Positions 2,675 to 61,624 of a stretch of 64,000 bases of DNA are shown piece by piece. A model generated the notes under the pieces. That model saw nothing but the letters and a program-made list of their open reading frames with translations, did not search any database and was not told the origin of the DNA. A program made the position numbers and the translations under genes. The DNA is from a virus (Duplodnaviria > Caudoviricetes). Position 1 is the first letter of the stretch; each line of letters starts with the position of its first letter. Location of the stretch: IMG/VR virus record IMGVR_UViG_2574179762_000001, positions 1 through 64,000 of that record. One strand, given 5' to 3'.

Positions 2675-3131
2675 ATGATCGATTCCATCATCAAGCCCAA
2701 GCGCCCCGCCGGCCCTGGCTGGATTCGCGAGACGGGACAGGAAATCGAAGCTATCATGCGCGCCGCTGCGATGGGCTTCGCCTGCGAGGCCTGGGGGCAC
2801 CCTGAATCCGGCATTGCCACGTTCAGCGCGGTCGAGGTGGGCGCAGGATCCCGGTCAGCCTGTGCTCGGCCCCGAATACCACCTGAGCATCAGCAAGAAC
2901 GATGGCCGCGGCGGGTCGCGACGCACTACCAGTGCCGAGGCCCTATGGTGCTTGGCGCAATTCGACCTGATCGACGCCAAGGAAGACAATCACGTGCCTC
3001 ACGGTCTGGTGCGCAATTTCTGGCGGCCGGTGGCCGATAGCCTGTCTGGCTATGAATGCCCGTGCGCCGACGACGAGCCGGCCATGCGGGAGGACCTGGG
3101 CGACTATGTCTGGCGCGGGGTGACGAAATGA
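2675..3131 (+). pseudogene. hypothetical phage protein with frameshift near 2840
   Basis: ORFs 2675-3040 and 2814-3131 join if one G is removed from GGG at 2839-2841. Confidence 0.6.
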
Positions 3132-3376
3132 ACGGCCTCGGCGTCGGCACCTATCTCACGATGACAGAGCTCGCGGAGCTGGTCGGCTGCCAGCCGACCA
3201 GCCACAGCTGCATGAAGCGCTGGCTCAAGAAGCACGGCTGGCCCTTCGCAGTGAATATTGCCGGGGTGCCTCAGGTGAGCCGCGCATACCACGCGGCCCG
3301 CATGACCGGGGCCGCCAACCAGAGCGCCAACGATGGCGCCGAAGACGAACCAAACTTTGAAGCACTGCTCGCATGA
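3128..3376 (+). CDS. DUF4224-type excisionase-like protein
   Basis: YLTMTELAELVG...RWL...GVPQVSR; ATGA-coupled to integrase. Confidence 0.75.
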   Translation: MNGLGVGTYLTMTELAELVGCQPTSHSCMKRWLKKHGWPFAVNIAGVPQVSRAYHAARMTGAANQSANDGAEDEPNFEALLA

Positions 3377-4470
3377 TTTCCCGCCGCAAGACTCCTGATG
3401 GCCTGCCGTTTCGCTTGTACCGGCGCGAGGGGAAATTCAAGGTCAGCTACGGGTACAAGCTTCCGAACGGAACGTGGGCATTCCGCCTGGCCGCTCAGCG
3501 CAACAACCCCGATGCTGTTGCCGAGATCGACCAGGAAGCGCGCCGGCGCGCCGATGAACTGAACGGCAACTTCGTGCTGGCGGGAACCACCGAAGCCCTG
3601 ATCAACGAGTACTTCAAATGGCAAACCCGTCTGCCCGCTGACAGCGAAATGCGAAAGGCGGACATCACGCTGACCGAAAATCGCGTTGAGGCCAAAAACC
3701 TGATCAAGGTGTTCGGCAAGGTCAAGCCTGCGTCGATCAAGCCCCACCACATCTACCGGTATCTGGATCGGCGAGCCGAGCTCGGTGCTCCGGCCAAGGC
3801 CAACAAAGAGATCGCCCTGCTGTCTGCTGTGCTCGAGTACGGGCGCCGCTTGGGTGAGCTGCAGATCAACCCCTGCCGCGGCATCAAGTACAACCCAACT
3901 CGGCCACGGCAAAAGTATGTCCAGCCTCATGAGATCGCTCTCGCGCTAGAGATTGGCCGGGCCCGCGGCGGCAGCTACCTGGTACTCGCGCTCTGCGTGC
4001 ACGTGGCCTACCTGACTGTCAGCCGACCGGAAGAGATGCGCACCCTTGTTAGGCAGTCCTCGACCGAAGAGGGTCTCGTGGTTCCCGTTGGCAAGCGAAA
4101 GGGCGGCCAGATCCAGCGCACGAAGCTCGTCCGCTGGTCGCCCGCTCTGCGGAGCGCCGTGAACGAGGCTCTGGCCCTGCAGCGCACGGCGAGCGTCTAT
4201 GTGTTCGGCAATACGTCGGAACAGGTGTACAGCCGCAGCGGCTGGAACACGATCTGGAAGCGGCTGATGGGCTACTGCCAGGCAGTTGCCACTGAGCGCG
4301 AAATTGAGTTCAGCCCGTTCACACTGGCCGACATGAGGCCCAGTGCCGTTACTGACCGGATGGAGGAAGGCGACGACCGCATCACGGACGCCACCGGTCA
4401 CGCGGACGGAAAGATGGTGGCCAAGGTCTACGACCGGCGGCGCGTTCGCAAGGTGCGCCCTACGGCCTGA
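3373..4470 (+). CDS. int: tyrosine recombinase/integrase (element A)
   Basis: SRPEE (R), ADMR, GH...Y motifs; adjacent to att. Confidence 0.9.
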   Translation: MISRRKTPDGLPFRLYRREGKFKVSYGYKLPNGTWAFRLAAQRNNPDAVAEIDQEARRRADELNGNFVLAGTTEALINEYFKWQTRLPADSEMRKADITLTENRVEAKNLIKVFGKVKPASIKPHHIYRYLDRRAELGAPAKANKEIALLSAVLEYGRRLGELQINPCRGIKYNPTRPRQKYVQPHEIALALEIGRARGGSYLVLALCVHVAYLTVSRPEEMRTLVRQSSTEEGLVVPVGKRKGGQIQRTKLVRWSPALRSAVNEALALQRTASVYVFGNTSEQVYSRSGWNTIWKRLMGYCQAVATEREIEFSPFTLADMRPSAVTDRMEEGDDRITDATGHADGKMVAKVYDRRRVRKVRPTA

Positions 4471-4486
4471 CAGGTTCGCCGGAAAC

Positions 4487-4514
4487 GAAAAAGCCCACCG
4501 CAGCGGGTGGGCCT
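4487..4514 (-). terminator. intrinsic terminator hairpin
   Basis: GCCCACC...GGTGGGC stem with U-tract on the minus strand. Confidence 0.6.
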
Positions 4515-4601
4515 TCAAAAATCAAGTTCCAAAAATTGGAAGATCATCTTCCAAAAATCCGGCTAAGTCAGTGGGCCTTAACCTTGGAACCTAATGAATA
4601 C

Positions 4602-4650
4602 TTGGGGTGGCTGATGGGACTCGAACCCACGACGACAGGAATCACAATCC
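4602..4650 (-). repeat. att core, 3' half of tRNA-His(GTG), A/B junction
   Basis: Reverse complement GGATTGTGATTCC...GGTTCGAGTCCCATCAGCCACCCCA; identical to 60104-60152; tRNA 5' half absent. Confidence 0.92.
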
Positions 4651-4835
4651 CGGCATCAATCGCCATTTTTCCCTTTAAAATCAAAACCTTTTCCCTCATT
4701 TTTTCCCACGAGAGCTAGATTTTTCACAAGCAGTCATGCGGGTCTGAGGGGTGCCGTGGGAAAAATTGTACCCCGCGCGAGCGCCATGCGCCACCTCAAT
4801 TTCTGGCGCGCGGTGGAGCTTGCTGGGTTACGATA

Positions 4836-4851
4836 CTGTATATTTATACAG
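4836..4851. promoter_or_regulatory. LexA (SOS) box
   Basis: CTGTATATTTATACAG fits CTGT-N8-ACAG and overlaps a TACAGT -10. Confidence 0.85.
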
Positions 4852-4860
4852 TATCCGTCC

Positions 4861-5199
4861 ATGCCAGACTTCCCTGTCGGCCCTGACGGTCGGTACCAGA
4901 TCCCCAAGCTGACAGCCGCCCAGCTGCGGGCCTTCTTCTTCCGAAGGCCGTGCCCGGAAGTGCGCGATTTGCTGTGGGAGATCCACCGGCTGCGCCTCCT
5001 GCTGCTCCGCGCCAACCAGTTGCAAGAGGCGATGACGGGCGCGAACGCACCCACGACTCAGTTCATTCTTGACATCTTTCGACGTGAGATCGAGGGCGAG
5101 CCGTGCATAAAGGAGCGTCAGGCCTGGGATCTGGAGTTCTTTGGGCCGCGCCGGGTGAGCGAATACACTCGACGGCAGAAGGAGCCTGGCGATGGGTGA
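4861..5199 (+). CDS. SOS-regulated hypothetical protein
   Basis: ATG 9 nt after LexA box; EVRDLLWEIHRLR helix. Confidence 0.65.
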   Translation: MPDFPVGPDGRYQIPKLTAAQLRAFFFRRPCPEVRDLLWEIHRLRLLLLRANQLQEAMTGANAPTTQFILDIFRREIEGEPCIKERQAWDLEFFGPRRVSEYTRRQKEPGDG

Positions 5200-5818
5200 T
5201 GCCCCTCTATCCTTGCGCGATGTCGAGCCGATGCTGGCCGAGGACCGCAAACTCCTGCCGACCCTCGGGAGCTGGCACTACGAGATCAAATATGACGGCT
5301 ATCGAATGCTGGCGGGCACCTCGCCCCGGGCGCTGAAGACGCGCAACGGTGCCGATGCGACGACCTGGTTCCCGGAAGTGGTCTCAGCCTTGTCCGCGCT
5401 ACCGTTGGGCGCCCACATCCTCGATGGCGAGGTTTGCGTGCTGGATGACATCGGGCGATTTGACTTCAATCGTCTGCACACCCGCGCGCGGCGCCGCGGC
5501 TGGTATCCCGGCGCGGATCCGGTGGTCTACTGCGTCTTCGATCTGCTGGTCTATCGCGGGAAGGACATCCGAGGCGAGCCTATCGAGGCGCGCAAGCGGC
5601 GGCTGGCCCAGCTATTGAGCGGACAGCCAGATGGCGTCCTGTTTGTGCAGAGCGAGGAGGATGGGGCTTGGCTCTATCAGTGCGCGCTGGATTTACGTCT
5701 GGAGGGCGTGGTGGCCAAGCGCGCCGTCAGTGAGTACGCCGCGGGACGGTCGTCGAATTGGCTCAAGATCAAGCGGCCCGGCGCTGTCCTGGCGGCCAAG
5801 TTTCACCGGGAGCCGTAA
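5192..5818 (+). CDS. ATP-dependent DNA ligase adenylation domain (LigD-like, no OB domain)
   Basis: EIKYDGYR, LDGEV, FDLL, EGVVAKR, WLKIK motifs. Confidence 0.85.
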   Translation: MGDAPLSLRDVEPMLAEDRKLLPTLGSWHYEIKYDGYRMLAGTSPRALKTRNGADATTWFPEVVSALSALPLGAHILDGEVCVLDDIGRFDFNRLHTRARRRGWYPGADPVVYCVFDLLVYRGKDIRGEPIEARKRRLAQLLSGQPDGVLFVQSEEDGAWLYQCALDLRLEGVVAKRAVSEYAAGRSSNWLKIKRPGAVLAAKFHREP

Positions 5819-5894
5819 GGTCGCGGCTCATGGGGTGCGCTCCTGCGCCCTTCCCCCCGAAGGGACTGTAGACTTTGCCAAGACAGGAGGCACC

Positions 5895-6191
5895 ATGTGC
5901 ACGAACTACGCCCCAGTGCAGCGCCTGGTCCTGCGGGACATCTTCGGCGTCGAGCCGCCGGCAGCCGAGTGGAAGCCAGAGACCTGGCCGGACTATGCCA
6001 CGCCGATCGTGCGCGCCGATGGTGATGGCCGGCGCGACAGCGTCCTGGCCGCCTTCGGCATGATCCCCCGCGACCGCTGGCCTGAGAACGTTCGCCCCTT
6101 CGCGACCATGAACGCCCGCTCGGAGACAGTTGGCGAGAAGCGCAGCTTCAGCGGGCCGTGGAAGAATGGCCAGCTCTGCCTGGTGCCGGCC
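5895..6191 (+). pseudogene. SRAP (YedK/HMCES) abasic-site protein, 5' part
   Basis: AGGAGG RBS, MCTNY with catalytic Cys2, MNARSET, CLVPA; interrupted by insertion. Confidence 0.88.
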
Positions 6192-6695
6192 TACCGGCGA
6201 GTTGCCATGGCATGGACATCCAAAATTCGCAGTGCTGGCGCGGCCTTGATCTGAAATGACGCTGTCCATAGCGCCATCGGTTTTTGCAGGGGGATTCCAT
6301 GATGGCGTCCATACCTCAAGGTCCTTCGCGCGCTGGCGCTGACTTCGCGGGCGGCGTTCGCCACGGCCAGCCTGTAGCACGCTTGGACAATCGGCGCGAG
6401 CAACTCGACCGTGCCGACTGTGAGCGCGGACAATGCCTTGAACAAGATCCCCGCTCGGCGCGCAGGCCCAAGCCGGCCGAGACCGGCCAGTTTCCGACAC
6501 TCGCCGGCATAGCCCCCCGCCCACACGCCGATGGCTGTTACGCCGCGGCAGCGGACAAAAGTCTTCCAACCGGCGCAACCTGGCACGTGCACACCGCGGT
6601 CGCTTTCGAGATGGAAAATGAAATCTCGAAGATTCCGCTTGCAATCTCATGTGGAGTTCCGTAGACTGCATTCACTCGAACAACGAAGAAGAAAA

Positions 6696-7139
6696 ATGAA
6701 CGACCTAGATGCGAGGGAAGGCTTTGCCTTCGAATGCCACATTCGGGATTTTTACGCAGCAAACCTGAAGCGCTATAAACCAGGACATTTGGTTTCCCAA
6801 CGGGAAGTAACGTATAAGACGAGCAGGATAAGAGCAGATCTGCGTACTGTGGATCAGCACGACGTTATCTTCGAATGGGAATTCAAAATTGAAGCCGATT
6901 ACAGTTCGATTGGACAAATAATGGCGTATACGGCTCACGCCAAAGTTGAGTTCAATTTCAATAGAACGGTGCGCTCAGTTATCGCGGCGTTCGAGTTCCC
7001 GGATGAAATTCGAATGGCAATTGAGGTGAATAACCTTGGAATTGAGATGGTCCGTTTACCGGGGGCGATAAGGAACGCAGGACACGTCCCATCTCTGTTG
7101 ACCAACCCGGCAGTGCTTGAAATACCAAGTCTGAAATAA
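6696..7139 (+). CDS. NucS-like PD-(D/E)XK nuclease
   Basis: E..IRD, REV, RADL, EFK, IGQIMAY pattern. Confidence 0.7.
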   Translation: MNDLDAREGFAFECHIRDFYAANLKRYKPGHLVSQREVTYKTSRIRADLRTVDQHDVIFEWEFKIEADYSSIGQIMAYTAHAKVEFNFNRTVRSVIAAFEFPDEIRMAIEVNNLGIEMVRLPGAIRNAGHVPSLLTNPAVLEIPSLK

Positions 7140-7158
7140 ATTTCGTGGAGTCTTAAAT

Positions 7159-8673
7159 ATGCTCAATATCCCACAAGTCAAGTCGAGCATCATCGAAAAC
7201 GATGAAATTTTCGCGGATCCTGATTATCAAGGCCTTAAAATCGTCCGTGCTCAAACAGATAAGGACGCGAATAAAGCCTATTATGATAATAAGTACGAGT
7301 TCCAACATCAACATGGCGACTACACTGTCGTCCGAGCCACGCTCTGCCGCAAGGGTTATGTCGCGACCGAAGTAGCGGAGAAGCAGAGGATTACCGTAAT
7401 GATCCATCCGTCGCTGAAGTTGTTCACCGAAATTGTCAAATACGATCCAGCAGAGCCGCCTAAAGAAAATTACTATGCGCTTGAAATGCTGGAAGCCCAC
7501 AAGCTCACCCAGAGCGATTTTAAAGGGCAAAAGGCTGCCAACAAGGAGATGTTTAAAACATATATCCTCGAAGGTATTAGTGGGGTTCGCCCAATCTTTT
7601 TGCCGATAATCAGCGGTTGGCAATCGAAGGCGGTATTTTCAAAAACGGTTTTCGTTGCCTTTGATGAAGAAGATCCGAATGCAATGTACGGTACGCTGTA
7701 CCTTCCCAAGTCGCCCGTAATGCAATCTGACGGGCAAACACAAACTGCGGCACTGTTTGCGGTGGCAAACACAGCAGATGCGATCGAAAAGAGTGCACTC
7801 GATCGACTGTCCCTGACACTTGAAATCGAATTGAATGTCGATGCGCGCAAGGCCGGGCAAAGTTTTGCAGATCGGAATGGGCGTGGATCCAAGAAAAATC
7901 GAAATCTCGTAATTGGCTTGAATACTGCTGAGCCGATTAGCGACCTGCGACTGCGTGCGACGAAGGATACAGTTTTCGAAAACCGCATCGCGGATGGGCG
8001 AACGACCGGCACATCGGAAACGGCAACCACGAATATCGTAGACCTGAGCACGATGGAGCAAATGCTCCTCGGGGCACTTACCAACAATCGGTTCAAGCCC
8101 GAGCAACTGAAACATTACCACGTCGAACCTTTGTTACCATTCGCCCGTGAATTCACTGAGTTGCTCGATGAGGTTTTCGCGTCGCAATGGCCGGCCACAA
8201 CACCTCCCAAACAGGACACATTCCGGCGCCTATACGTTCATGGGTGGCCGTTCGCACTGAAAGCGATTGCATTTGCGTACTTTGAAAGTCGAGCGGACAA
8301 ACTTACCCCCATCCTTGCCGCAATGACTGTTAAGAATGCGCTCAAATCTCAGGAGGTTGTGTTTGCGGAGGCCTTGGCGGCAGCTGAAAACCCAGAGAAA
8401 GAGCCGGTCATTTCATTTGAAGAACTTAAGAAGCGGTTGCTGGCTATCGACTGGCTCCGGTACCGCAGGCACTGGATTAATATTACCAATTCAAATGTTG
8501 ACAAATCAGGCAACCGAAAGACGTTTGTGCTCAAGAGTACCGGCGAACGTAAGGTCGTGGGCTTGGCTCCAAATACAGCTGCGAACATCGCCACTGTGAA
8601 GAATAAGATCATCTCTGATAAGTGGATCGAACTGACCGGAAGCGATGACGCGCCTATTGCCGTAAAGAAATAA
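7159..8673 (+). CDS. DndB/DGQHR-like domain protein (DGQTQ variant)
   Basis: PIFLPII...SDGQTQTAAL...QSFADRN resembles the DndB family core. Confidence 0.7.
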   Translation: MLNIPQVKSSIIENDEIFADPDYQGLKIVRAQTDKDANKAYYDNKYEFQHQHGDYTVVRATLCRKGYVATEVAEKQRITVMIHPSLKLFTEIVKYDPAEPPKENYYALEMLEAHKLTQSDFKGQKAANKEMFKTYILEGISGVRPIFLPIISGWQSKAVFSKTVFVAFDEEDPNAMYGTLYLPKSPVMQSDGQTQTAALFAVANTADAIEKSALDRLSLTLEIELNVDARKAGQSFADRNGRGSKKNRNLVIGLNTAEPISDLRLRATKDTVFENRIADGRTTGTSETATTNIVDLSTMEQMLLGALTNNRFKPEQLKHYHVEPLLPFAREFTELLDEVFASQWPATTPPKQDTFRRLYVHGWPFALKAIAFAYFESRADKLTPILAAMTVKNALKSQEVVFAEALAAAENPEKEPVISFEELKKRLLAIDWLRYRRHWINITNSNVDKSGNRKTFVLKSTGERKVVGLAPNTAANIATVKNKIISDKWIELTGSDDAPIAVKK

Positions 8674-9028
8674 CGTTGGCGCTTTGCGCAGGTGCTCGAA
8701 TAGATGGCCGCCCCTCACCGGGGGGCATCTATTCAGCGTGCGATCACTTCCTCCAGCGACGTGCCAATGGCATCTATTTGGAGGGCAAGCGGGACGACAA
8801 TGCTCACGTCGGTTTTCGCGCGTGAGCACGGATGCGCCGCCACTGCTGAAGGATCGCTCCCAGCGTCCGATTGCTGCACTGAAGCTGTCACATAAAGTGA
8901 GCCATTTCGAATGACGGTAGTGGGTCGGCAAGAGCCTGTCGGGGGATCTAACTCCATCCATCCCTGATGTCCATACGTTGTACCTTGAGGTGTGCGCGTC
9001 CATGGGCTGCACCTTACCGTTACCGGCC

Positions 9029-9376
9029 ACGGCCGTCTACGAGCCGAACTACGAGGCCGGGCCCAAGTCCACGCGGTACAAAATCTGGCTGCCGGGAGAG
9101 CCGGCGTTTGGGATTGCCGGCTTGTGGAGGGATTGGCCGGATGGAACCTACTCGTTCACCATGCTGACGGTGAACGCGGACAAGCACCCGCTGATGAACC
9201 GGATGCACGCCCCAGGCAAGGAGAAGCGGTCGGTCGTGATCGTGCCGCGCGGGGAATGGGATGACTGGCTGACATGCCGGGATCCGGAGCGGGCGCGCAG
9301 CTTCATGCAGCCCTATCCTGCTACGCTAATGGATGCCGCCCCAGCCCTGAGAAGTCCAATCAGAAAGGAAAATTAA
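9029..9376 (+). pseudogene. SRAP, 3' part
   Basis: YEPNY, IAGLW, FTMLT, RMH, RSVVIV motifs. Confidence 0.88.
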
Positions 9377-9840
9377 TGAGCAAGCCAGTCATTCCCCATT
9401 ACTCCCCATCGAAAACCGGATTTCTTGCTCTCCGAACAGCACAGGACTTGTTCGCGAAGGCGGAGCGAGACCTTGCGGCACTCGAATACAACCCACAAAG
9501 CGCGGACGCTGCCTTCAATTTCTTCGTCACTGCACACCACATCGCCGACTGGGCGGGAGCGTTGGATAGCCGCGATCAACACCCCCTCTTGAAGATATGC
9601 CGACACATCGCAGATGGAGTCAAACACTTTGAGTTGACGGCAAAGCACCACAACCTAGTCTCGGGTGTTGTGGACGAGAGCTATGTTGACGATGGCTACT
9701 TTGAGCCAGGATATGTCGAGCAAGATGTGCACATCCTCCTGGAGCCAAACAATGGCCTCACCAATGCGGATAGGATTGATGTGCTGGAATTGGCCCGCCT
9801 AGTGATTGCCTTTTGGCGGCAAAGGCTCGGCGTTGTTTAG
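9376..9840 (+). CDS. hypothetical protein, possibly HEPN-like
   Basis: AAGGA RBS, TAATG coupling to SRAP; helical, with CRHIADGVKH. Confidence 0.6.
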   Translation: MSKPVIPHYSPSKTGFLALRTAQDLFAKAERDLAALEYNPQSADAAFNFFVTAHHIADWAGALDSRDQHPLLKICRHIADGVKHFELTAKHHNLVSGVVDESYVDDGYFEPGYVEQDVHILLEPNNGLTNADRIDVLELARLVIAFWRQRLGVV

Positions 9841-10025
9841 TCGGGTGGGACTGAGGGCTATCAGTCATCGCCCCCGTTCGATAGTTGGTTTGCCAGCCCT
9901 CCGCGCAATCCCGTCGGCTCCGCCTTTAACATCCGGTCCGCACTCGGCGTCGACATCTGCTTCACCTTGCCCACCAGTTGCTTGTTCGTGAGCGATCGGC
10001 GTGAAGATCGACTCGGGCGCGCTGG

Positions 10026-10448
10026 TCACTGCCCGAACGAGTGCAGCCGCGACTCGTCCAGACTGACGTAGCAGTGGTAGAACTTCTCGCCCGCGTAGCC
10101 CCCGTAGCTGTTCTTGCCATTGATCGCCAAGGTGTACCGCCGGCTCGTCCCTTGCGGACTGGGAAAGATGCCGCTGTAGAAGACGATGCCGATTTTCAGG
10201 CTGTCGGGGTCTTTGAAGTGACGCGGCGCATCGGCCAGGCACAGTGCCTTTCCCGGACCTTCATACGATGGGTCCACCTTCTCGACGGGCTGCGGCTTTT
10301 CCAGTGCGCCCCCTCTCCCGGCGCACGGCTGGTCTTGATATACGACGCGCCCACCGACCTCGCAGCGGTTGACCTGCGCCGACGCGCTGGCGGCCAGCAG
10401 CAAGGCTACCGCACTCGAACCCGCAATCTTTCGCACGTTTGACCCCAT
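10026..10448 (-). CDS. secreted DUF4124-like protein
   Basis: Signal peptide then VNRCEVGGRVVYQDQPC. Confidence 0.7.
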   Translation of the reverse strand: MGSNVRKIAGSSAVALLLAASASAQVNRCEVGGRVVYQDQPCAGRGGALEKPQPVEKVDPSYEGPGKALCLADAPRHFKDPDSLKIGIVFYSGIFPSPQGTSRRYTLAINGKNSYGGYAGEKFYHCYVSLDESRLHSFGQ

Positions 10449-10475
10449 TTTTGTTCTTTGAACGGCGAGCGTAGC

Positions 10476-10498
10476 AAAACCCCGGCGCGCGGCCGGGG
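10476..10498 (-). terminator. intrinsic terminator
   Basis: CCCCGG stem with TTTT on the minus strand. Confidence 0.6.
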
Positions 10499-10513
10499 CA
10501 AGGTCTTAGACCT

Positions 10514-12096: not shown

Positions 12097-13990
12097 GGGT
12101 TTCCACTCCGATCGTCTGGAACACTTCGGGCATGCTCACGTCGACGCTGGTGCTGCGCACGATGCCGAGGCGCGTGAAGCCGCCATCGACGTACCGCACG
12201 AACTTGCCCGGGGTGATCACGCCCGTCTCGGCCAGTACCGGCAGCCGCAGCGCGAGATGCGCCTGGCGCCCGGTGTCGCCGAGGACTGCCAGCCCGTGCT
12301 GACGCGCGGCATCGACGTGCGTGATGAGCGCGTCGGTCACCATCGGGGCGAGGATGTCGCCAGCCGTGCCGCCGCGGGTCACCTGGCCGAGCACGCCCTG
12401 CCCCTCACCGCTGACGAACACGCGGTTGTAGCGGGGCCGCTCCAGCCACTCGATCGACTCGCGCGTCGTCACGTCGGCAGGGAGTTCGAAGTCCGGCGTA
12501 ACCGAGCTCCAGTTCCACGGCGCCGTCGGGTAGCGCGCCAGCACGGTCAGCGCCTTCTGGCTCGGGTGCGGTTGGATATAGGCACCGGCCGCGCCCGCAA
12601 TCTGGTTCAGCGCCGTGATGTAGGTGCCCTGATGCGACCAGGCGCCCGCCGGTACCAGCCAGTCGGTGAGCGCCCAGTTGACGGTCCAGCCGATGCTTGC
12701 CCCATTGATGGTGAGCGCATCGTTCATCAGTTGCTGCGCCGTGCGCGCGGTCGAGTTGCTGAAGTTCTGCACAGGCGCGTACGGGGCGCCGAGGATGGCC
12801 GATTTACCCTTGCCGCTCACACGGATGGCCGAGCGCCCGAACGTGCGATCACGGCTGATTTGCTCGGCCAGCACGCGGTAGCCAGTGCCGTTGATGACGG
12901 CCTCCAGTTCAACCGGCGTGCCATCAGATCCGGGCTCGATAGCGCCCAGTGTTTCTGGTGGCAGCGCCGCGTTGAATCCCCACGTCCAGGAGTCGGCGTC
13001 GATGCTCAGTGAGAGCGAAAAGGTCGGGAGTTCGACATTGCCGTCAACGCGGCGCAGCATCACAGTGTTCAACACGATATAGACCCTCTTGACGGGAACG
13101 ATGACGGTTTCGCCAGGCTCCGGCGGCTTTTCCTCGTCACATTGATACTTGGCAAAATTCAGGCGGATGTCGTCGCCGGCGTAATCCAGCCACGGGCAAA
13201 CGAAGTTCAGGTCCGTATCACCCTCGAACGGCGGAGTGAACGGCGGAACCACGATCTGCTCGTGACCATAGGCCGGGCGCTTAGCCTCCTGCCAAGGCAC
13301 CTTAGTCGTGTGCGGGGCACGCCGACCCGGCTGGAAGTAGCCACTGATGCGGCGATAGACCGATTTGGCCTCCTGATGGCGCTCCTTCACCACGGGCTTG
13401 ACCGGTCGGCCGTTCTCAAACGGCGAGACTTCCATCCGCTTCAGCGGCGCGGCCTCCTGCCAGCGGTTTCCGGCGCTGACCTTGATGTGCGGCGCGTACT
13501 CAAAAGGCGACTTCAGGGCGCGGTCAAGCGGCGCGGCCGCCTGGTACGGCAGCTTCGTGATGGCGCGCTGCCTGGCTGCCTGCTGCCAGTCCTGCAGTTT
13601 GCTTGCCTCCAGGCGGCGACCGTCCTGCCACGGCTCGGCGCGCACGGGCTTCAGGCTGATCGCGTTCTCGTAGCGCTGTGTCTTACCAGGCTTGAGGTGC
13701 GCCCCGTCCTGGTAGGCCGCGTTCGTGGCGTGGCTCGGCCCGCGGAACACGCGGTTGTCGTAGTTGGCCTGAACGTGCAGCGTCTGCGTTGTGTGCAGTG
13801 TCATCGTCAGGGCAGCTTCGACCGGCTTGGCCTTCTCTGCCGTGACGGCAATCTGCAGCGTCGGCGCGTGCGTGGTTAGTTGAACCGCGATGATCGTCGG
13901 AACGCCGTCGGGGTTCAGAGAGAAATTAAGGTCTACATGCCCGCCCGCAGGCGGGGTGTAAGCCTTATGAAAATTCAGATCGTTGCTCAC
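12080..13990 (-). CDS. tail tip/hub protein
   Basis: Position in tail operon; internal W/Y-Q repeats. Confidence 0.65.
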   Translation of the reverse strand: MSNDLNFHKAYTPPAGGHVDLNFSLNPDGVPTIIAVQLTTHAPTLQIAVTAEKAKPVEAALTMTLHTTQTLHVQANYDNRVFRGPSHATNAAYQDGAHLKPGKTQRYENAISLKPVRAEPWQDGRRLEASKLQDWQQAARQRAITKLPYQAAAPLDRALKSPFEYAPHIKVSAGNRWQEAAPLKRMEVSPFENGRPVKPVVKERHQEAKSVYRRISGYFQPGRRAPHTTKVPWQEAKRPAYGHEQIVVPPFTPPFEGDTDLNFVCPWLDYAGDDIRLNFAKYQCDEEKPPEPGETVIVPVKRVYIVLNTVMLRRVDGNVELPTFSLSLSIDADSWTWGFNAALPPETLGAIEPGSDGTPVELEAVINGTGYRVLAEQISRDRTFGRSAIRVSGKGKSAILGAPYAPVQNFSNSTARTAQQLMNDALTINGASIGWTVNWALTDWLVPAGAWSHQGTYITALNQIAGAAGAYIQPHPSQKALTVLARYPTAPWNWSSVTPDFELPADVTTRESIEWLERPRYNRVFVSGEGQGVLGQVTRGGTAGDILAPMVTDALITHVDAARQHGLAVLGDTGRQAHLALRLPVLAETGVITPGKFVRYVDGGFTRLGIVRSTSVDVSMPEVFQTIGVETHVATA

Positions 13991-14391
13991 GCCTCAACCA
14001 GCGATCCGACCGACATTGACACATCGCCGCCCTCATAGAGTTGGGTGGTAGGCTGCCCGTTTGAGGTCAACACTACTTCAGCGCCTACGTCCATATCAGC
14101 GACGAATGTTCCGTCACTGGCGACGATCCGGCCCCAGGTAGCGTTACCCGTCTTCAGCGCCAGCTGCGACGCCCCGACCAAGATCGGCAGCGTCATGCCC
14201 GAGATCGTGCCGGCCGACGGGTAGGCGAACGGCAGCGCCGCGAGCTTGACCTGCGTGGTTACCGCCGCGCCGGTGTCCGGCCGGGTGCCGCTATAGATGT
14301 TCAGCACGCCCGCCGCGCCACCGCCGTCGATGGCGGTGGTCAGTGCCTTCAGGCGGTTGGCGATCACCGTGGTCGAAAGGGCGAGCGTCAT
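13987..14391 (-). CDS. virion structural protein
   Basis: LNIYSGTRP, GNATWGRI motifs; coupled in tail operon. Confidence 0.7.
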   Translation of the reverse strand: MTLALSTTVIANRLKALTTAIDGGGAAGVLNIYSGTRPDTGAAVTTQVKLAALPFAYPSAGTISGMTLPILVGASQLALKTGNATWGRIVASDGTFVADMDVGAEVVLTSNGQPTTQLYEGGDVSMSVGSLVEA

Positions 14392-17117
14392 GGGGCGAGT
14401 TCCTCATAGCCGATGATCAGGGCCGGTGCGTTGGCGACATACTTGCGCACCATCACGTAGTCGATGGTGCTGCTTTGGTTGCTTTCCCAAGTGCGGGCCA
14501 TGAGCAGTTGCGCTGACGACGCAGACACTCCAGTCCGGGTCTTCAGCAGTACGTCGTCAATGATGAGTTGCGCATTGCCGTCGGCTCCCCAACCCAACTG
14601 CACCCGACCGCTGGCCTTCTTCGGGGAGAAGTCGCCGGTGGTGGCACTGTCTGCCTCATTATTGATCGCCAAACGGGACTGAGTCAGGCGTGGCTGCGGC
14701 GAGTCCAGCACCAACTCGAAGGAGGGGCTTGCCTGCGTGCCGGTAACAAAACCCAAGGCCCGGTCGGTGTTGCCGGCTCCATTGCCGCCAGAAGTGGCGA
14801 TGTTGTTGTACCTCGCAATGACCTCCACGCCGGAATTAAACGAGGCGGACGAACGCAGTTCCACAAAAGCCGAACGGCCTTGTACGGCCACTACCGAGGC
14901 CCCATTGCAGGTGACGAAGCCGCCGGAATCGTTGTAACGCAGCCACTTGGAGTCGGGCACCGCCCCGTTAGCCAGATCGAAGTCATCGAACAGCAGCGGG
15001 AACGCCGCCGCACCACTGCTCGCCACCGGCGTCACGGTGTTGTACACCACGGAGAACTGCGCATTGCCGCTGTCCAGGTTCTGGCCGCCCAGGTTCACCC
15101 AGTAGAACGCGGTACGGTTCGGCGTGGTGCCGACCACCCGCTCCAGCCAGTACGGCAGGCTGTTGCCGGCCAGGTCGGTGAAGGCAATATCGGCGGTGTA
15201 GTCGCCCTTCGCGGTCGGGAACGTCTTCAGCATCAGTGCCACATCCGCCGCCAGCGCGGTGTTAGTCCCTTGGAAGGTCTGGCTCATCGCCAGTGGGCTC
15301 TCGCCGATGCGCACCAGCACCGCGTGGTTCGTGCCCAACCCCACCGCCTGCGGCATGGTGATCTTGCGGCGGAGCTTGGCGATGGTCTCGGACGGGTAGC
15401 TGCTGTATAGCGGCATCAGCACCGGCGTCACCATGTCCTGCACTACCGCGTTGTAGGTCTTCGAGTAGTCGCGGCCCAGCACCTGATACTTGTAGCTCTC
15501 GTTGACGTTATCGAACACGTAATTGCCGCTGGCGTCAGACCAAGCGCTCTGCACCAGTCCGCTGCCTTCCTCGATCAGCCGAACCTTTTGCGGCGTCGGG
15601 GTGTTGTTCACTGTGGTCTGTCCGGCGACCCGGCCCCTGCCACCCCAGGTCTGGTCGGTCTGGCCTGCGTAGCCCTTGTGTCCCTTGACGGATTGCGGCC
15701 CGGTTACAGGGGAGGACGGCAGCTTGGTGTAGGCATACATCGGCAGCACGTTGCTGTACGTACGGCGCGAGAACGCAGGGTCGGCAAAGGGGGCGGACGG
15801 CGGGGTGAAGGCGCCGTAGTACACCGGCGAGCCGACCACCATGCGCCATTCATCGAGGTAGCCCGTGAAGAAGAAGGTAGACGGCTCTCCCCCGAAATAC
15901 AGGGGGTTGGCGGTGCCCCATACCTGCTGCCCGGCGGTGAACGTTGCCGTGCCCACGGACACCCCGTTGAGGTACAAAGTGAGGGTCGTGCCGTAGCGCA
16001 CCAGCGCGACGTGATACCAAGTGTTGGCCACCAGCGTGCCTGCCGGCCCAATGCTTTGCGTGTAACTGGAGCCGTTGGTAGACGCTTGGCCCTGCACCTG
16101 ATTGCCGACACGGAGAATCCGAAAGGCGGCCGCCCCACTCGCATTGTATTTCGACACCAGCACCGTCGTGCCCGCCGCAACCGTAGTCGGGTAGAACCAC
16201 CCCTCGACGCAGAAATCGTAGTTCGAGACTGCCAGTTCCGGGGCGTCAGGGGTGTTCAGGTAGGTGTTGCCGCCGAAGAACCCTGACGAGCCGAACTTGG
16301 CCGGGGAGGCGGACAGGGCTACCGGGGTGGCGGTGGAACTGGTCATGAGCCGACCGGAACGTGACGAGTCGATCCATTGCAGGCTGTTGCCCGCCGTCTT
16401 CTGATCGAAGTGCAGCAGCACGGCAACAAACAACCAGTCGTCAAACTGCGTGGAGGGTGCCGAGAACCCACTGGTATAGCGCGCCACCCCCAAAGTGAGG
16501 CGCAGTTCGTCGTAGTACGCCTCCAAGAAAGTGGAGCCGGCGGTAAAGTTCGACTGCCCCAGCGTAAAGGGCTGGGTCAAGCTGCAACTGATTGCACTTG
16601 AAATCGTGCCCGTGCCCTTGGCGACGCCGTTGATCCACACCGTCAGCGTGTTGCCCTGCCGCGTCAGGGCGACGTGAGCGAAGGCCCCGGTGGGCAGGTC
16701 GCCTGCACTGCCTGCAATCAATTGCACGCCGCCGACTGAAACATTGACCGCCCCGTTGGCGGCCCGCGCTACCAGCCAGTCTTGATTGGCCGGCGTGGCG
16801 TCATCCCACCGCCCCATGATCGCGCCGTAGTCGGTGCCCTGTGACACCGGCCAGACGAAGCACTCCACGGTGAAGTCGGCGCTGCCGAAGTCCAGCAGTC
16901 TGCCGGGCGGGTAGCGCCAGTAGTTGCCGTTGGCACTGCCGGTCTTCAGCGATGTGGTGCCGAACTTGGCCTGCACACTGCTCATGGCGGTCGTACCGAC
17001 GCAGCCCGAAAACATGCCGGTAAGGTACTTGGAACTGTCCCAAATAGCGGTGGCGCTGCCGTAGACGTTCTCGAAGTGGGACAGCAACGCCACATTGTCG
17101 ATGTATGGATCTGCCAC
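14388..17117 (-). CDS. tail fibre/adhesin with two LamG-like domains and a DUF2341-like domain
   Basis: Repeated LLHF...DF.VE.W...HVAL.R...DE.R modules; LPYWLE..FYWV. Confidence 0.75.
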   Translation of the reverse strand: MADPYIDNVALLSHFENVYGSATAIWDSSKYLTGMFSGCVGTTAMSSVQAKFGTTSLKTGSANGNYWRYPPGRLLDFGSADFTVECFVWPVSQGTDYGAIMGRWDDATPANQDWLVARAANGAVNVSVGGVQLIAGSAGDLPTGAFAHVALTRQGNTLTVWINGVAKGTGTISSAISCSLTQPFTLGQSNFTAGSTFLEAYYDELRLTLGVARYTSGFSAPSTQFDDWLFVAVLLHFDQKTAGNSLQWIDSSRSGRLMTSSTATPVALSASPAKFGSSGFFGGNTYLNTPDAPELAVSNYDFCVEGWFYPTTVAAGTTVLVSKYNASGAAAFRILRVGNQVQGQASTNGSSYTQSIGPAGTLVANTWYHVALVRYGTTLTLYLNGVSVGTATFTAGQQVWGTANPLYFGGEPSTFFFTGYLDEWRMVVGSPVYYGAFTPPSAPFADPAFSRRTYSNVLPMYAYTKLPSSPVTGPQSVKGHKGYAGQTDQTWGGRGRVAGQTTVNNTPTPQKVRLIEEGSGLVQSAWSDASGNYVFDNVNESYKYQVLGRDYSKTYNAVVQDMVTPVLMPLYSSYPSETIAKLRRKITMPQAVGLGTNHAVLVRIGESPLAMSQTFQGTNTALAADVALMLKTFPTAKGDYTADIAFTDLAGNSLPYWLERVVGTTPNRTAFYWVNLGGQNLDSGNAQFSVVYNTVTPVASSGAAAFPLLFDDFDLANGAVPDSKWLRYNDSGGFVTCNGASVVAVQGRSAFVELRSSASFNSGVEVIARYNNIATSGGNGAGNTDRALGFVTGTQASPSFELVLDSPQPRLTQSRLAINNEADSATTGDFSPKKASGRVQLGWGADGNAQLIIDDVLLKTRTGVSASSAQLLMARTWESNQSSTIDYVMVRKYVANAPALIIGYEELAP

Positions 17118-60985: not shown

Positions 60986-61624
60986 ATGCCTGGGCGGCGC
61001 GAGGCCCCGCCCCTGAACTTGGCCAGCTTCCCGCTGATGCTGGCCAAGCGCGGCGTGATGCCGCACGGTGACGACTGGCTCTACGAACTGAAATACGACG
61101 GGTATCGCCTGCTGGCGCGGACGGGCGACCCGGCGGTACGCCTGCGTGAAGGTGGCGACGCTACCAGCTGGTTCCCTGAACTGCACATCCCCTTGGCGGC
61201 CCTGCCCGCGGGCTGCGTGCTCGACGCCGAGGGCGTGGTGTTCGATGACATCGGCCGCCCCGACTTCAACGCCTTCCATGCGCGGGCCCTGCGCAGGCGC
61301 TGGTATCGCGGCGCGCCCCCTGTCGCCCTCGCCGCCTTCGACCTCCTGGTCCTGCGCGGGCGGGACATCCGAGACTGGCCCATAGAGAAACGCAAAGCGG
61401 CGCTGCAGAAGCTGCTAGGCGGGGTGACCGTTGGCCTGCTGTACGTGAGCGCCGTGGACGATGGTGAATGGCTCTACCAGCATGTGCGGGCCCTCGGCAT
61501 GGAGGGCATCGTCGCCAAGCGCGCCGGCAGCCTGTACCGGGGCGGCGCATCCGACGACTGGCGCAAGATCAAGGTGCCTGGCTACCACCGCCTAGGCAAG
61601 TTCCAGCGTGAACCTCTCGCTTGA
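60986..61624 (+). CDS. ATP-dependent DNA ligase adenylation domain (no OB domain)
   Basis: ELKYDGYR, FDLL, EGIVAKR, WRKIK; paralog of 5192-5818. Confidence 0.85.
   Translation: MPGRREAPPLNLASFPLMLAKRGVMPHGDDWLYELKYDGYRLLARTGDPAVRLREGGDATSWFPELHIPLAALPAGCVLDAEGVVFDDIGRPDFNAFHARALRRRWYRGAPPVALAAFDLLVLRGRDIRDWPIEKRKAALQKLLGGVTVGLLYVSAVDDGEWLYQHVRALGMEGIVAKRAGSLYRGGASDDWRKIKVPGYHRLGKFQREPLA

Follow-up and report, generated by a model that had tools for sequence, protein, structure and literature searches.

The Dpd system puts 7-deazaguanine bases (dPreQ0 or dADG) into DNA, and the way in which it restricts DNA is poorly understood. In a 64,000-nucleotide stretch of Caudoviricetes DNA (positions 1 to 64,000 of the IMG/VR virus record IMGVR_UViG_2574179762_000001; the window), an SRAP (SOS-response-associated peptidase) gene is split by a 2837-bp insert that holds two open reading frames (ORFs): ORF1, encoding a protein with a PD-(D/E)XK nuclease fold, and ORF2, encoding a ParB/DndB-like protein. 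The insert had been singled out in an earlier annotation made without database searches (the original prediction). We consider it moderately likely that the insert is a derivative of a GInt-type island that lacks the recombinases and carries a cargo pair acting with the Dpd system of the host as a restriction or sensor module. GInts, Dpd, DndB-like proteins and NucS-fold nucleases have each been described before. What appears to be new in the searchable literature is the SRAP gene as a target of GInt-type insertion, a remnant that keeps only the ends and the cargo, and the ORF1-ORF2 pair as a Dpd-associated module, present also where DpdD-K were not found. The genome that contains the window is labeled G000; other G-numbers denote comparison genomes, and L-numbers denote loci.

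Several described systems bear on this locus, and the statements made here about them extend to passages of the papers cited. GInts carry the ginABCD genes at one end, followed by cargo and a short far end, and insert site-specifically with short imperfect direct repeats (Bardaji et al. 2017, PMC5385486). Staggered cuts of 6 nucleotides have been inferred for them, and all four gin genes are required for both excision and integration (PMC5385486). GInts, SEs, RITs and Tn554 have been treated as separate groups of tyrosine-recombinase transposons (PMC10214605). Among systems that read DNA marks, SspE has a ParB/DUF262-like domain that senses phosphorothioate and drives a fused nuclease (PMC10164549, PMC12065111), and Dazbog includes a DUF262/ParB-superfamily protein (PMC12065111).

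A two-gene insert with shared island ends splits an SRAP gene

The SRAP reading frame is broken at 6191/9029 by the insert at 6192-9028 (one copy of the junction repeat counted). The N-terminal half of the gene (5895-6191, plus strand; 99 codons ending in LCLVPA) matches positions 28-103 of the Pfam SRAP profile (PF02586), and the C-terminal half (9029-9376, plus strand; 115 codons starting with TAVYEP) matches positions 107-206; the N-terminal frame runs on for 20 further codons inside the insert, to a stop at 6252-6254. The hexamer CCGGCC is present at both junctions (6186-6191 and 9023-9028), and intact homologues contain one copy only. Joined by script, the two pieces translate to a protein of 214 amino acids with the junction ...LCLVPATAVYEP..., which resembles the junctions of the intact genes of G011 and G019 (...LCLIPATAVYEP... 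and ...LCLIPAAAVYEP..., with a single copy of the site in both). In G066 the two halves abut with zero gap and show 81-83% amino acid identity to those of the window. The insert has a G+C content of 0.52 (ORF1 0.47, ORF2 0.49) versus 0.62 for the window and 0.69 for the N-terminal SRAP half. The split, the flanking repeats, the 214-residue product of excision and the AT-richer insert had all been claimed in the original prediction, and each holds. Its suggestion that related prophages would confirm the empty site was borne out in part: intact homologous SRAP genes with one copy of the site exist, but none of the 78 genomes of the genus yielded this prophage with its SRAP gene uninterrupted, the best ligase homologues there reaching no more than 67-68% identity. 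The case for an empty site is thus built on homologous SRAP genes in different settings and not on an insert-free version of the prophage itself.

Both ends of the insert recur in a GInt-like element of another genome, G092. The left end (6192-6274, 83 bp) is the one distal to ginA and shares 84.3% identity with its counterpart in G092; the right, ginA-side end (8922-9028, 107 bp) is 88.0% identical. The SRAP gene of G092 is split at the same codon as that of the window (between LCLVPA and YR), by an insert of 6.6 kb. The flanking SRAP halves are less alike between the two genomes (74.5% and 81.0%); that the ends are closer than the N-terminal SRAP flank would fit, though not prove, separate insertions into different SRAP genes. 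The G092 insert contains four co-directional ORFs of 439, 573, 682 and 146 amino acids whose ends overlap or are closely packed, and H-x-x-R (Box-II-like) and C-terminal tyrosine motifs were seen by eye in all three large ones. Only the two ends are common to this element and the window insert. The 6-bp repeat at both junctions, together with the shared split codon, points to site-specific insertion and is consistent with a 6-nucleotide stagger.

The G092 relative resembles GInts in the set of four co-directional genes at one element end, which match in kind and order (two or three of tyrosine-recombinase type, together with one for a small protein), in the diverse cargo and in the 6-bp repeat. 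The window copy differs from GInts in that it has no gin genes at all, and the targets listed in the supplementary file of PMC5385486 do not include an internal codon of SRAP (term search). The same kind of search found no mention of recombinase-less remnants in the main text of PMC5385486 or in the 2024 GInt preprint.

The 107-bp right end recurs in 13 of the 78 genomes of the genus and is nearly always followed by the same junction and by the C-terminal part, or a remnant, of SRAP. Two further copies lie in G000 itself (C1:1926602-1926706 and C8:2313488-2313581; 84% and 77% identical), each with the junction and a brief remnant of SRAP after it, and without gin genes; an 826-amino acid protein and a beta-lactamase-fold hydrolase are the neighbors. 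Cargo at the other right ends includes an acyl-CoA ligase, a nitroreductase, a major facilitator superfamily transporter, a thiolase, a beta-lactamase-fold hydrolase and a glutathione S-transferase. Recombinase-less remnants seem to be common in the genus, because among the 15 right-end loci outside the window (one of them at a contig start) ginA adjoins the end at G092 only.

No recombinase was found within 6192-9028 of the window, either in the ORF list or with Pfam. A tblastn search of the whole G000 genome with the four G092 proteins (E<=0.01) returned no gin homologue and a genome search for GinC was also negative, while GinC relatives occur in 17 of the 78 genomes of the genus. Since G000 holds no gin relatives, the cassette is probably immobile and fixed in place now. 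Two origins are possible: the gin operon may have been deleted from a pair-carrying island, or the cassette may have been mobilized in trans in an earlier host. The description of the locus as a transposase-free cassette in the original prediction is accurate in that the insert contains no recombinase, but the cassette is not an orphan, as its two ends are those of a GInt-like island that encodes three tyrosine-recombinase-like proteins. GInt-type islands, on this evidence, target an internal SRAP site, leave recombinase-less remnants and can sit within prophage regions, and such residence may give otherwise non-transmissible islands a route of travel.

A group I or group II intron was considered for so precise an insert in a coding gene and was rejected. 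Rfam with permissive filters gave only a chance snoRNA-like match (E 0.19), and the junction bases, read from the sequence, suit the splice rules of neither group if the SRAP frame is to be restored.

Between the left end and ORF1 lies a G+C-rich (0.61) stretch of 421 bp (6275-6695) that contains no convincing gene. Its ORFs have no Pfam match, its only relatives in 41 related genomes are matches of 29-41 bp, and tblastn detected no gin remnant in it. A ginA-like fragment is present in L005 (G019) at 2967-3284 (31% identity over 114 amino acids, E 6e-6), about 1.2 kb downstream of an intact SRAP gene. At L032 (G092) a DUF4431 gene (13092-13520) lies between ginA and the island end, and a gene for an Mrr-type restriction endonuclease (14058-14945) is found just past the split SRAP in a low-G+C stretch. 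In a remnant copy at L012 (6323-6571), the island end supplies an ATG in frame with the C-terminal SRAP remnant; a 5-bp difference in the window (8967-9028) breaks that frame and leaves an in-frame TTG at 8978 and ATG at 9002.

The ORF1-ORF2 pair

ORF1 (6696-7139, plus strand) encodes a protein of 147 amino acids that is assigned, by alignment, structural model and Foldseek, to the PD-(D/E)XK nucleases with a fold like that of the NucS/EndoMS catalytic domain. Residues E13, D48, E62, K64, Q74 and Y78 (PD-(D/E)XK followed by Q...Y) are invariant in 11 of 11 aligned homologues, and by this measure the nuclease motif is intact. In Foldseek the model (predicted local distance difference test (pLDDT) 87.6) matches the NucS/EndoMS catalytic domain, with 2vld (E 9.6e-7, template modeling score 0.63, root mean square deviation (rmsd) 2.1 over 110 columns and 22% identity) and 5gke (E 2.2e-6) as the structures matched. 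Like NucS/EndoMS, ORF1 combines the fold of the C-terminal catalytic domain with a D...ExK...Q motif; unlike these chains of ~230-250 residues, it is 147 residues long and lacks their N-terminal domain. No family was found for ORF1 in Pfam or PHROGs and nothing meaningful in NCBIfam, and PADLOC at E<=0.1 returned only PDC-S02, at chance level (E 0.034).

ORF2 (7159-8673, plus strand) encodes 504 amino acids and is a ParB/Srx-DndB-like protein with a helical C-terminal part, as judged from the Pfam DndB match, alignment, model and structural matches. It scores 27.1 bits against Pfam DndB (PF14072; E 2.8e-6), slightly below the gathering cut-off of 29.1, many of its homologues have a precomputed PF14072 match, and its neighbors in the protein atlas are all DndB clusters. 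The 244 relatives found at E<=1e-3 are about 500 amino acids long, 50-77% identical and mostly unnamed, and come from Proteobacteria, Firmicutes, Actinomycetes, Bacteroidota and Acidobacteriota. In the model (pLDDT 88) a ParB/Srx-like domain at about residues 64-240 is followed by the helical part. VIA-align gave middling matches for this domain, namely PadC (Z 6.3), pNOB8 ParB-N (Z 5.0), BrxU (Z 5.0, rmsd 10.5) and SspE (Z 4.0), and a Foldseek search of the PDB with the whole model found nothing at E<=0.001. PHROGs has no family for ORF2, NCBIfam nothing meaningful, and PADLOC at E<=0.1 returned 0 families. All 26 aligned ORF2 sequences carry MQxDGQTQT and QSFADRNGRG without variation; because of this invariance, DGQTQ is a trait of the family and not a sign of decay. 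Sequence comparison indicates that ORF2 is not a DpdB: hhalign against the DpdB profile gives a probability of 10.6% (E 0.0029), and no PADLOC DpdB model matches.

The nature of both proteins had been foreseen in the original prediction, and the invariant catalytic residues and NucS/EndoMS match of ORF1, like the ParB/DndB-like matches and family-wide DGQTQ of ORF2, agree with it. Its comparison of the pair with Dazbog is not supported. The likeness lies in a two-gene system with a ParB-superfamily protein, so far as the passages on Dazbog go. The difference lies in the profiles: at E<=0.1 ORF2 has no PADLOC match, ORF1 has the chance-level one to PDC-S02 only, and Pfam gives no DUF262 match; the library used, PADLOC 2.0.0, presumably includes Dazbog models. 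A check against PADLOC, also proposed at that stage, yielded no match of the pair to a known defense system.

The arrangement of the two genes is conserved. In a pattern scan of species-representative genomes for ORF2 relatives, which gave 33 loci, a relative of ORF1 stands directly upstream of the ORF2 relative in 31 loci from at least five phyla, with a 4-nucleotide stop/start overlap between the two genes in L035 and L038. Beyond the ORF1 pattern, no further neighbor is common to all 33 loci. In Lelliottia wanjuensis (L037, 5489-9118) the pair lies in a P2-like prophage between replication gene A and the portal/terminase genes, beside PD-T4-9, at a position that we take to be the known P2 defense hotspot. 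CBASS, PDC-S01, Mokosh-like and SspH-like genes occur within ±20 kb of pair loci that adjoin dpdABC, with CBASS near L038. ORF1 and ORF2 are a conserved, operon-like pair in defense-type contexts, and the defense association of homologues that the original prediction had named among its conditions is seen in these surroundings (PD-T4-9, CBASS). The phage collection held no near match for positions 4700-10500 of the window. No description of the ORF1-ORF2 pair was found in main-text passages of the Dpd literature.

Past the stop codon of ORF2, at a distance of 25 nucleotides, is an inverted repeat with 15-nucleotide arms that are 87% complementary (8698-8734, plus strand; not scored as a terminator). 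A promoter and terminator scan of 6100-9100 gave nothing above shuffle expectation.

Co-occurrence with Dpd and its possible explanations

DpdA (PDLC02807) is present in 31 of the 33 genomes with an ORF2 homologue and in 0 of 14 control genomes, and the DpdA-negative genomes of the pair scan, those of L034 and L066, hold the two loci without ORF1. DpdA itself is infrequent: it occurs in 3 of the 78 genomes of the window's genus, where G000, the sole holder of ORF2, is one of the three, and in 11 of the 251 genomes of the genus of G116. In the latter genus the ORF2 family is found in 4 of 11 DpdA-positive versus 0 of 240 DpdA-negative genomes (Fisher p 2e-6; the four are already among the 33, and kin genomes are not independent). 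Genes of the dpd cluster lie within 6 kb of the pair in nine of the 33 loci (L035, L036, L038-L041, L048, L062 and L064), typically as DpdC-DpdB-DpdA-DpdB with queC/D/E, and at L048 ORF1 directly follows DpdD. The L038 locus, from the soil bacterium Tunturiibacter lichenicola MP8S11, unites dpdC-dpdB-dpdA-dpdB, queD/queE and the pair in a compact cluster. One genome, G124 (locus L064), is unpublished; without it, ORF1 adjacency stands at 30/32, DpdA at 30/32 and dpd genes within 6 kb at 8/32. Where the pair stands beside dpdABC and queCDE in G098, G100, G101 and G096, no DpdD-K gene was detected within ±20 kb at E<=1e-15 apart from one weak DpdJ-like helicase, and a genome-wide search for DpdD came back negative for five of the six genomes in which the pair was first noticed adjoining dpdABC.

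At a distance of 2.8 Mb from the window, G000 encodes a complete Dpd system (C8:305000-329000; L089, L067), with the order DpdE, F, G, H, J, D, QueD, QueC, DpdB, DpdA, a second DpdB and DpdC. In G000, as in L038 and L035, DpdA has a DpdB gene on either side. DndC was not found in the G000 genome; for this one of the dnd genes, and for the recombinase in the insert, the absences noted in the original prediction were confirmed.

The pair is linked to Dpd in that it is found almost only with Dpd, sometimes in or beside the dpd cluster, and in that ORF2 belongs to the same ParB/DndB-like superfamily as DpdB. It differs in that neither protein matches a PADLOC Dpd model at E<=0.1, whereas the same library names DpdA-J in the G000 cluster, and in that the motif DGQQR given for DpdB in passages of the literature is DGQTQ in ORF2.

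The reading that we favor, as stated at the outset, joins these observations as follows. A family of islands with three tyrosine-recombinase-like proteins and a small protein would enter a fixed CCGGCC site inside SRAP genes, and the copy in the window would have kept both ends and the two-gene cargo, its gin operon having been lost or never present. ORF2, as a putative ParB/DndB-like DNA binder, would tell Dpd-marked from unmarked DNA and control ORF1, which would cut unmarked incoming DNA, while marking by DpdABC would protect the DNA of the host. The pair would then be an alternative or additional restriction arm beside DpdD-K, in the manner of SspE, DndFGH and other modules for phosphorothioate marks. 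Computation establishes the insertion, the shared ends, the conserved pairing, the intact nuclease motif, the ParB-like fold and the co-occurrence with Dpd; that ORF1 and ORF2 bind each other, read the mark and restrict DNA is our inference. A restriction model that depends on the Dpd mark would account for the confinement of observed pairs to genomes with DpdA, for their presence where DpdD-K are missing and for their carriage by mobile elements in Dpd-positive hosts.

In this model the pair resembles SspE and DndFGH in that a ParB/DUF262-like protein would sense a mark on host DNA and be coupled to a nuclease, and SspE is among the structural matches of ORF2, weakly (Z 4.0). SspE, however, combines its sensor with an HNH-type nuclease in a single protein and recognizes phosphorothioate, whereas the pair has its PD-(D/E)XK nuclease as a separate protein and would recognize 7-deazaguanine. 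The fused ParB/DUF262-DUF1524 layout of SspE and GmrSD is likewise not seen in ORF2, for which Pfam reports neither a DUF262 nor a DUF1524 (HNH-type) domain. As a tentative extension, plausible but short of probable in our estimate, the pair may be a compact, self-contained restriction module that reads the DpdABC mark, a two-gene alternative to the eight-gene DpdD-K that is portable on GInt-type islands and prophages. A module that occurs only with DpdA, and beside dpdABC where DpdD-K are missing, is a small candidate for the reading of 7-deazaguanine in DNA, and suggests that several restriction arms can be exchanged for one another on a single DNA mark, a situation known from phosphorothioate.

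A number of points weigh against this interpretation. Many of the genomes with the pair are related actinomycetes, so that independent events are fewer than the counts imply; the pattern scan, moreover, demanded two exact motifs and was biased toward close family members. DpdD is also present in 22 of the 33 pair genomes, in which restriction does not have to depend on the pair alone. Because Dpd islands without a restriction operon are known (described in part of PMC12235509), adjacency to dpdABC is no proof of a restriction role. The arginine of the DGxQR motif contacts the phosphates of the nucleoside triphosphate (NTP) in relatives (passages of PMC12065111); DGQTQ is without that arginine, so that ORF2 may lack canonical NTPase activity and may not act like SspE or DpdB. 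As regards the island, ginA does not adjoin 13 of the 15 right-end loci outside the window. Pfam detects only a weak Phage_integrase match in the first of the large G092 ORFs (18.6 bits, E 0.0016) and none in the other two, and the G092 element is called GInt-like on a comparison of gene order, sizes and motifs with the published description. Terminal inverted repeats of the insertion sequence/Tn3 type were sought and rejected, as the alignment of the first 26 nucleotides of the two ends, which starts at base 1, was equaled by 66 of 500 shuffles.

We also weighed whether the pair might serve Dpd modification itself, with ORF2 as a DndB-like regulator or a DpdB-like helper that loads or targets DpdA, and ORF1 as a DNA-binding or nicking accessory. 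Such a role would suit the DndB/ParB-like character of ORF2 and has precedents in DndB, a regulator, and DpdB, an ATPase helper of DpdA (passages of PMC5699537 and PMC10164549), and the pair does stand beside dpdABC in loci without dpdD-K, modification-only islands having been reported (in part of PMC12235509). The invariance of the ORF1 catalytic residues in 11 of 11 homologues argues against it, however, as does the faint likeness of ORF2 to DpdB (hhalign 10.6%) at loci that already hold one or two DpdB genes, and the pair is often far from dpd, for instance at the prophage site beside PD-T4-9. We regard this explanation as unlikely, though worth keeping in view.

Another hypothesis sees in the pair a two-gene anti-phage system that stands alone and works without DNA modification, its link to Dpd reflecting only co-residence in defense islands. 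A two-gene operon in defense-type surroundings with no dpd gene within 6 kb in 24 of 33 loci is what such a system would look like, but the co-occurrence holds genome-wide, beyond islands (DpdA in 31/33 genomes against base rates of 4-5%, and the pair in 0 of 240 DpdA-negative genomes of one genus), and makes the hypothesis distinctly improbable. A two-gene anti-phage system was the central proposal of the original prediction; a conserved pair of a sensor-like protein and a nuclease-fold protein in defense contexts remains of it, whereas its free-standing character does not, as the pair is almost confined to Dpd-positive genomes.

Slightly less probable again is that the pair is a counter-measure of mobile elements to Dpd restriction, or has some other element-serving function in Dpd-positive hosts. 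Its carriage on a GInt-derived cassette in a prophage region and on a P2-like prophage would agree with this, and an anti-Dpd function would likewise be expected only in Dpd-positive hosts; yet the pair adjoins dpdABC at loci where the search for DpdD-K revealed no target for such a counter-measure, at L048 it lies embedded immediately behind DpdD, and an intact nuclease would be an unusual tool of anti-restriction.

Finally, a type IV (modification-dependent) nuclease against phage DNA with 7-deazaguanine or other modified bases, for which ParB/DUF262-like domains that sense modified DNA in GmrSD/BrxU and SspE offer a precedent (in passages of PMC12065111) and the weak BrxU match of ORF2 (Z 5.0, rmsd 10.5) some agreement, is highly improbable, as almost all of the hosts carry deazaguanine-modified DNA and the enzyme would be self-destructive unless it read another derivative.

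Prophage surroundings of the split gene

Upstream of the split gene, the window contains an excisionase-like gene and an integrase gene (3056-4470), followed by a dip in G+C content to 0.53 (4400-4800) and then by the ligase-SRAP block; lysis and tail genes begin at about 10768. A search of the window for tRNA genes was negative. The ligase gene beside SRAP (5192-5818) encodes a short ATP-dependent DNA ligase, and a ligase next to SRAP, in either order, is also found in G066, G019, G018, G005 and G001. The window holds a second copy of the ligase at 61010-61615, with 54% amino acid identity, and a fragment resembling the N-terminal part of SRAP lies about 2.4 kb before the start of the window (G000:C8:3098107-3098281).

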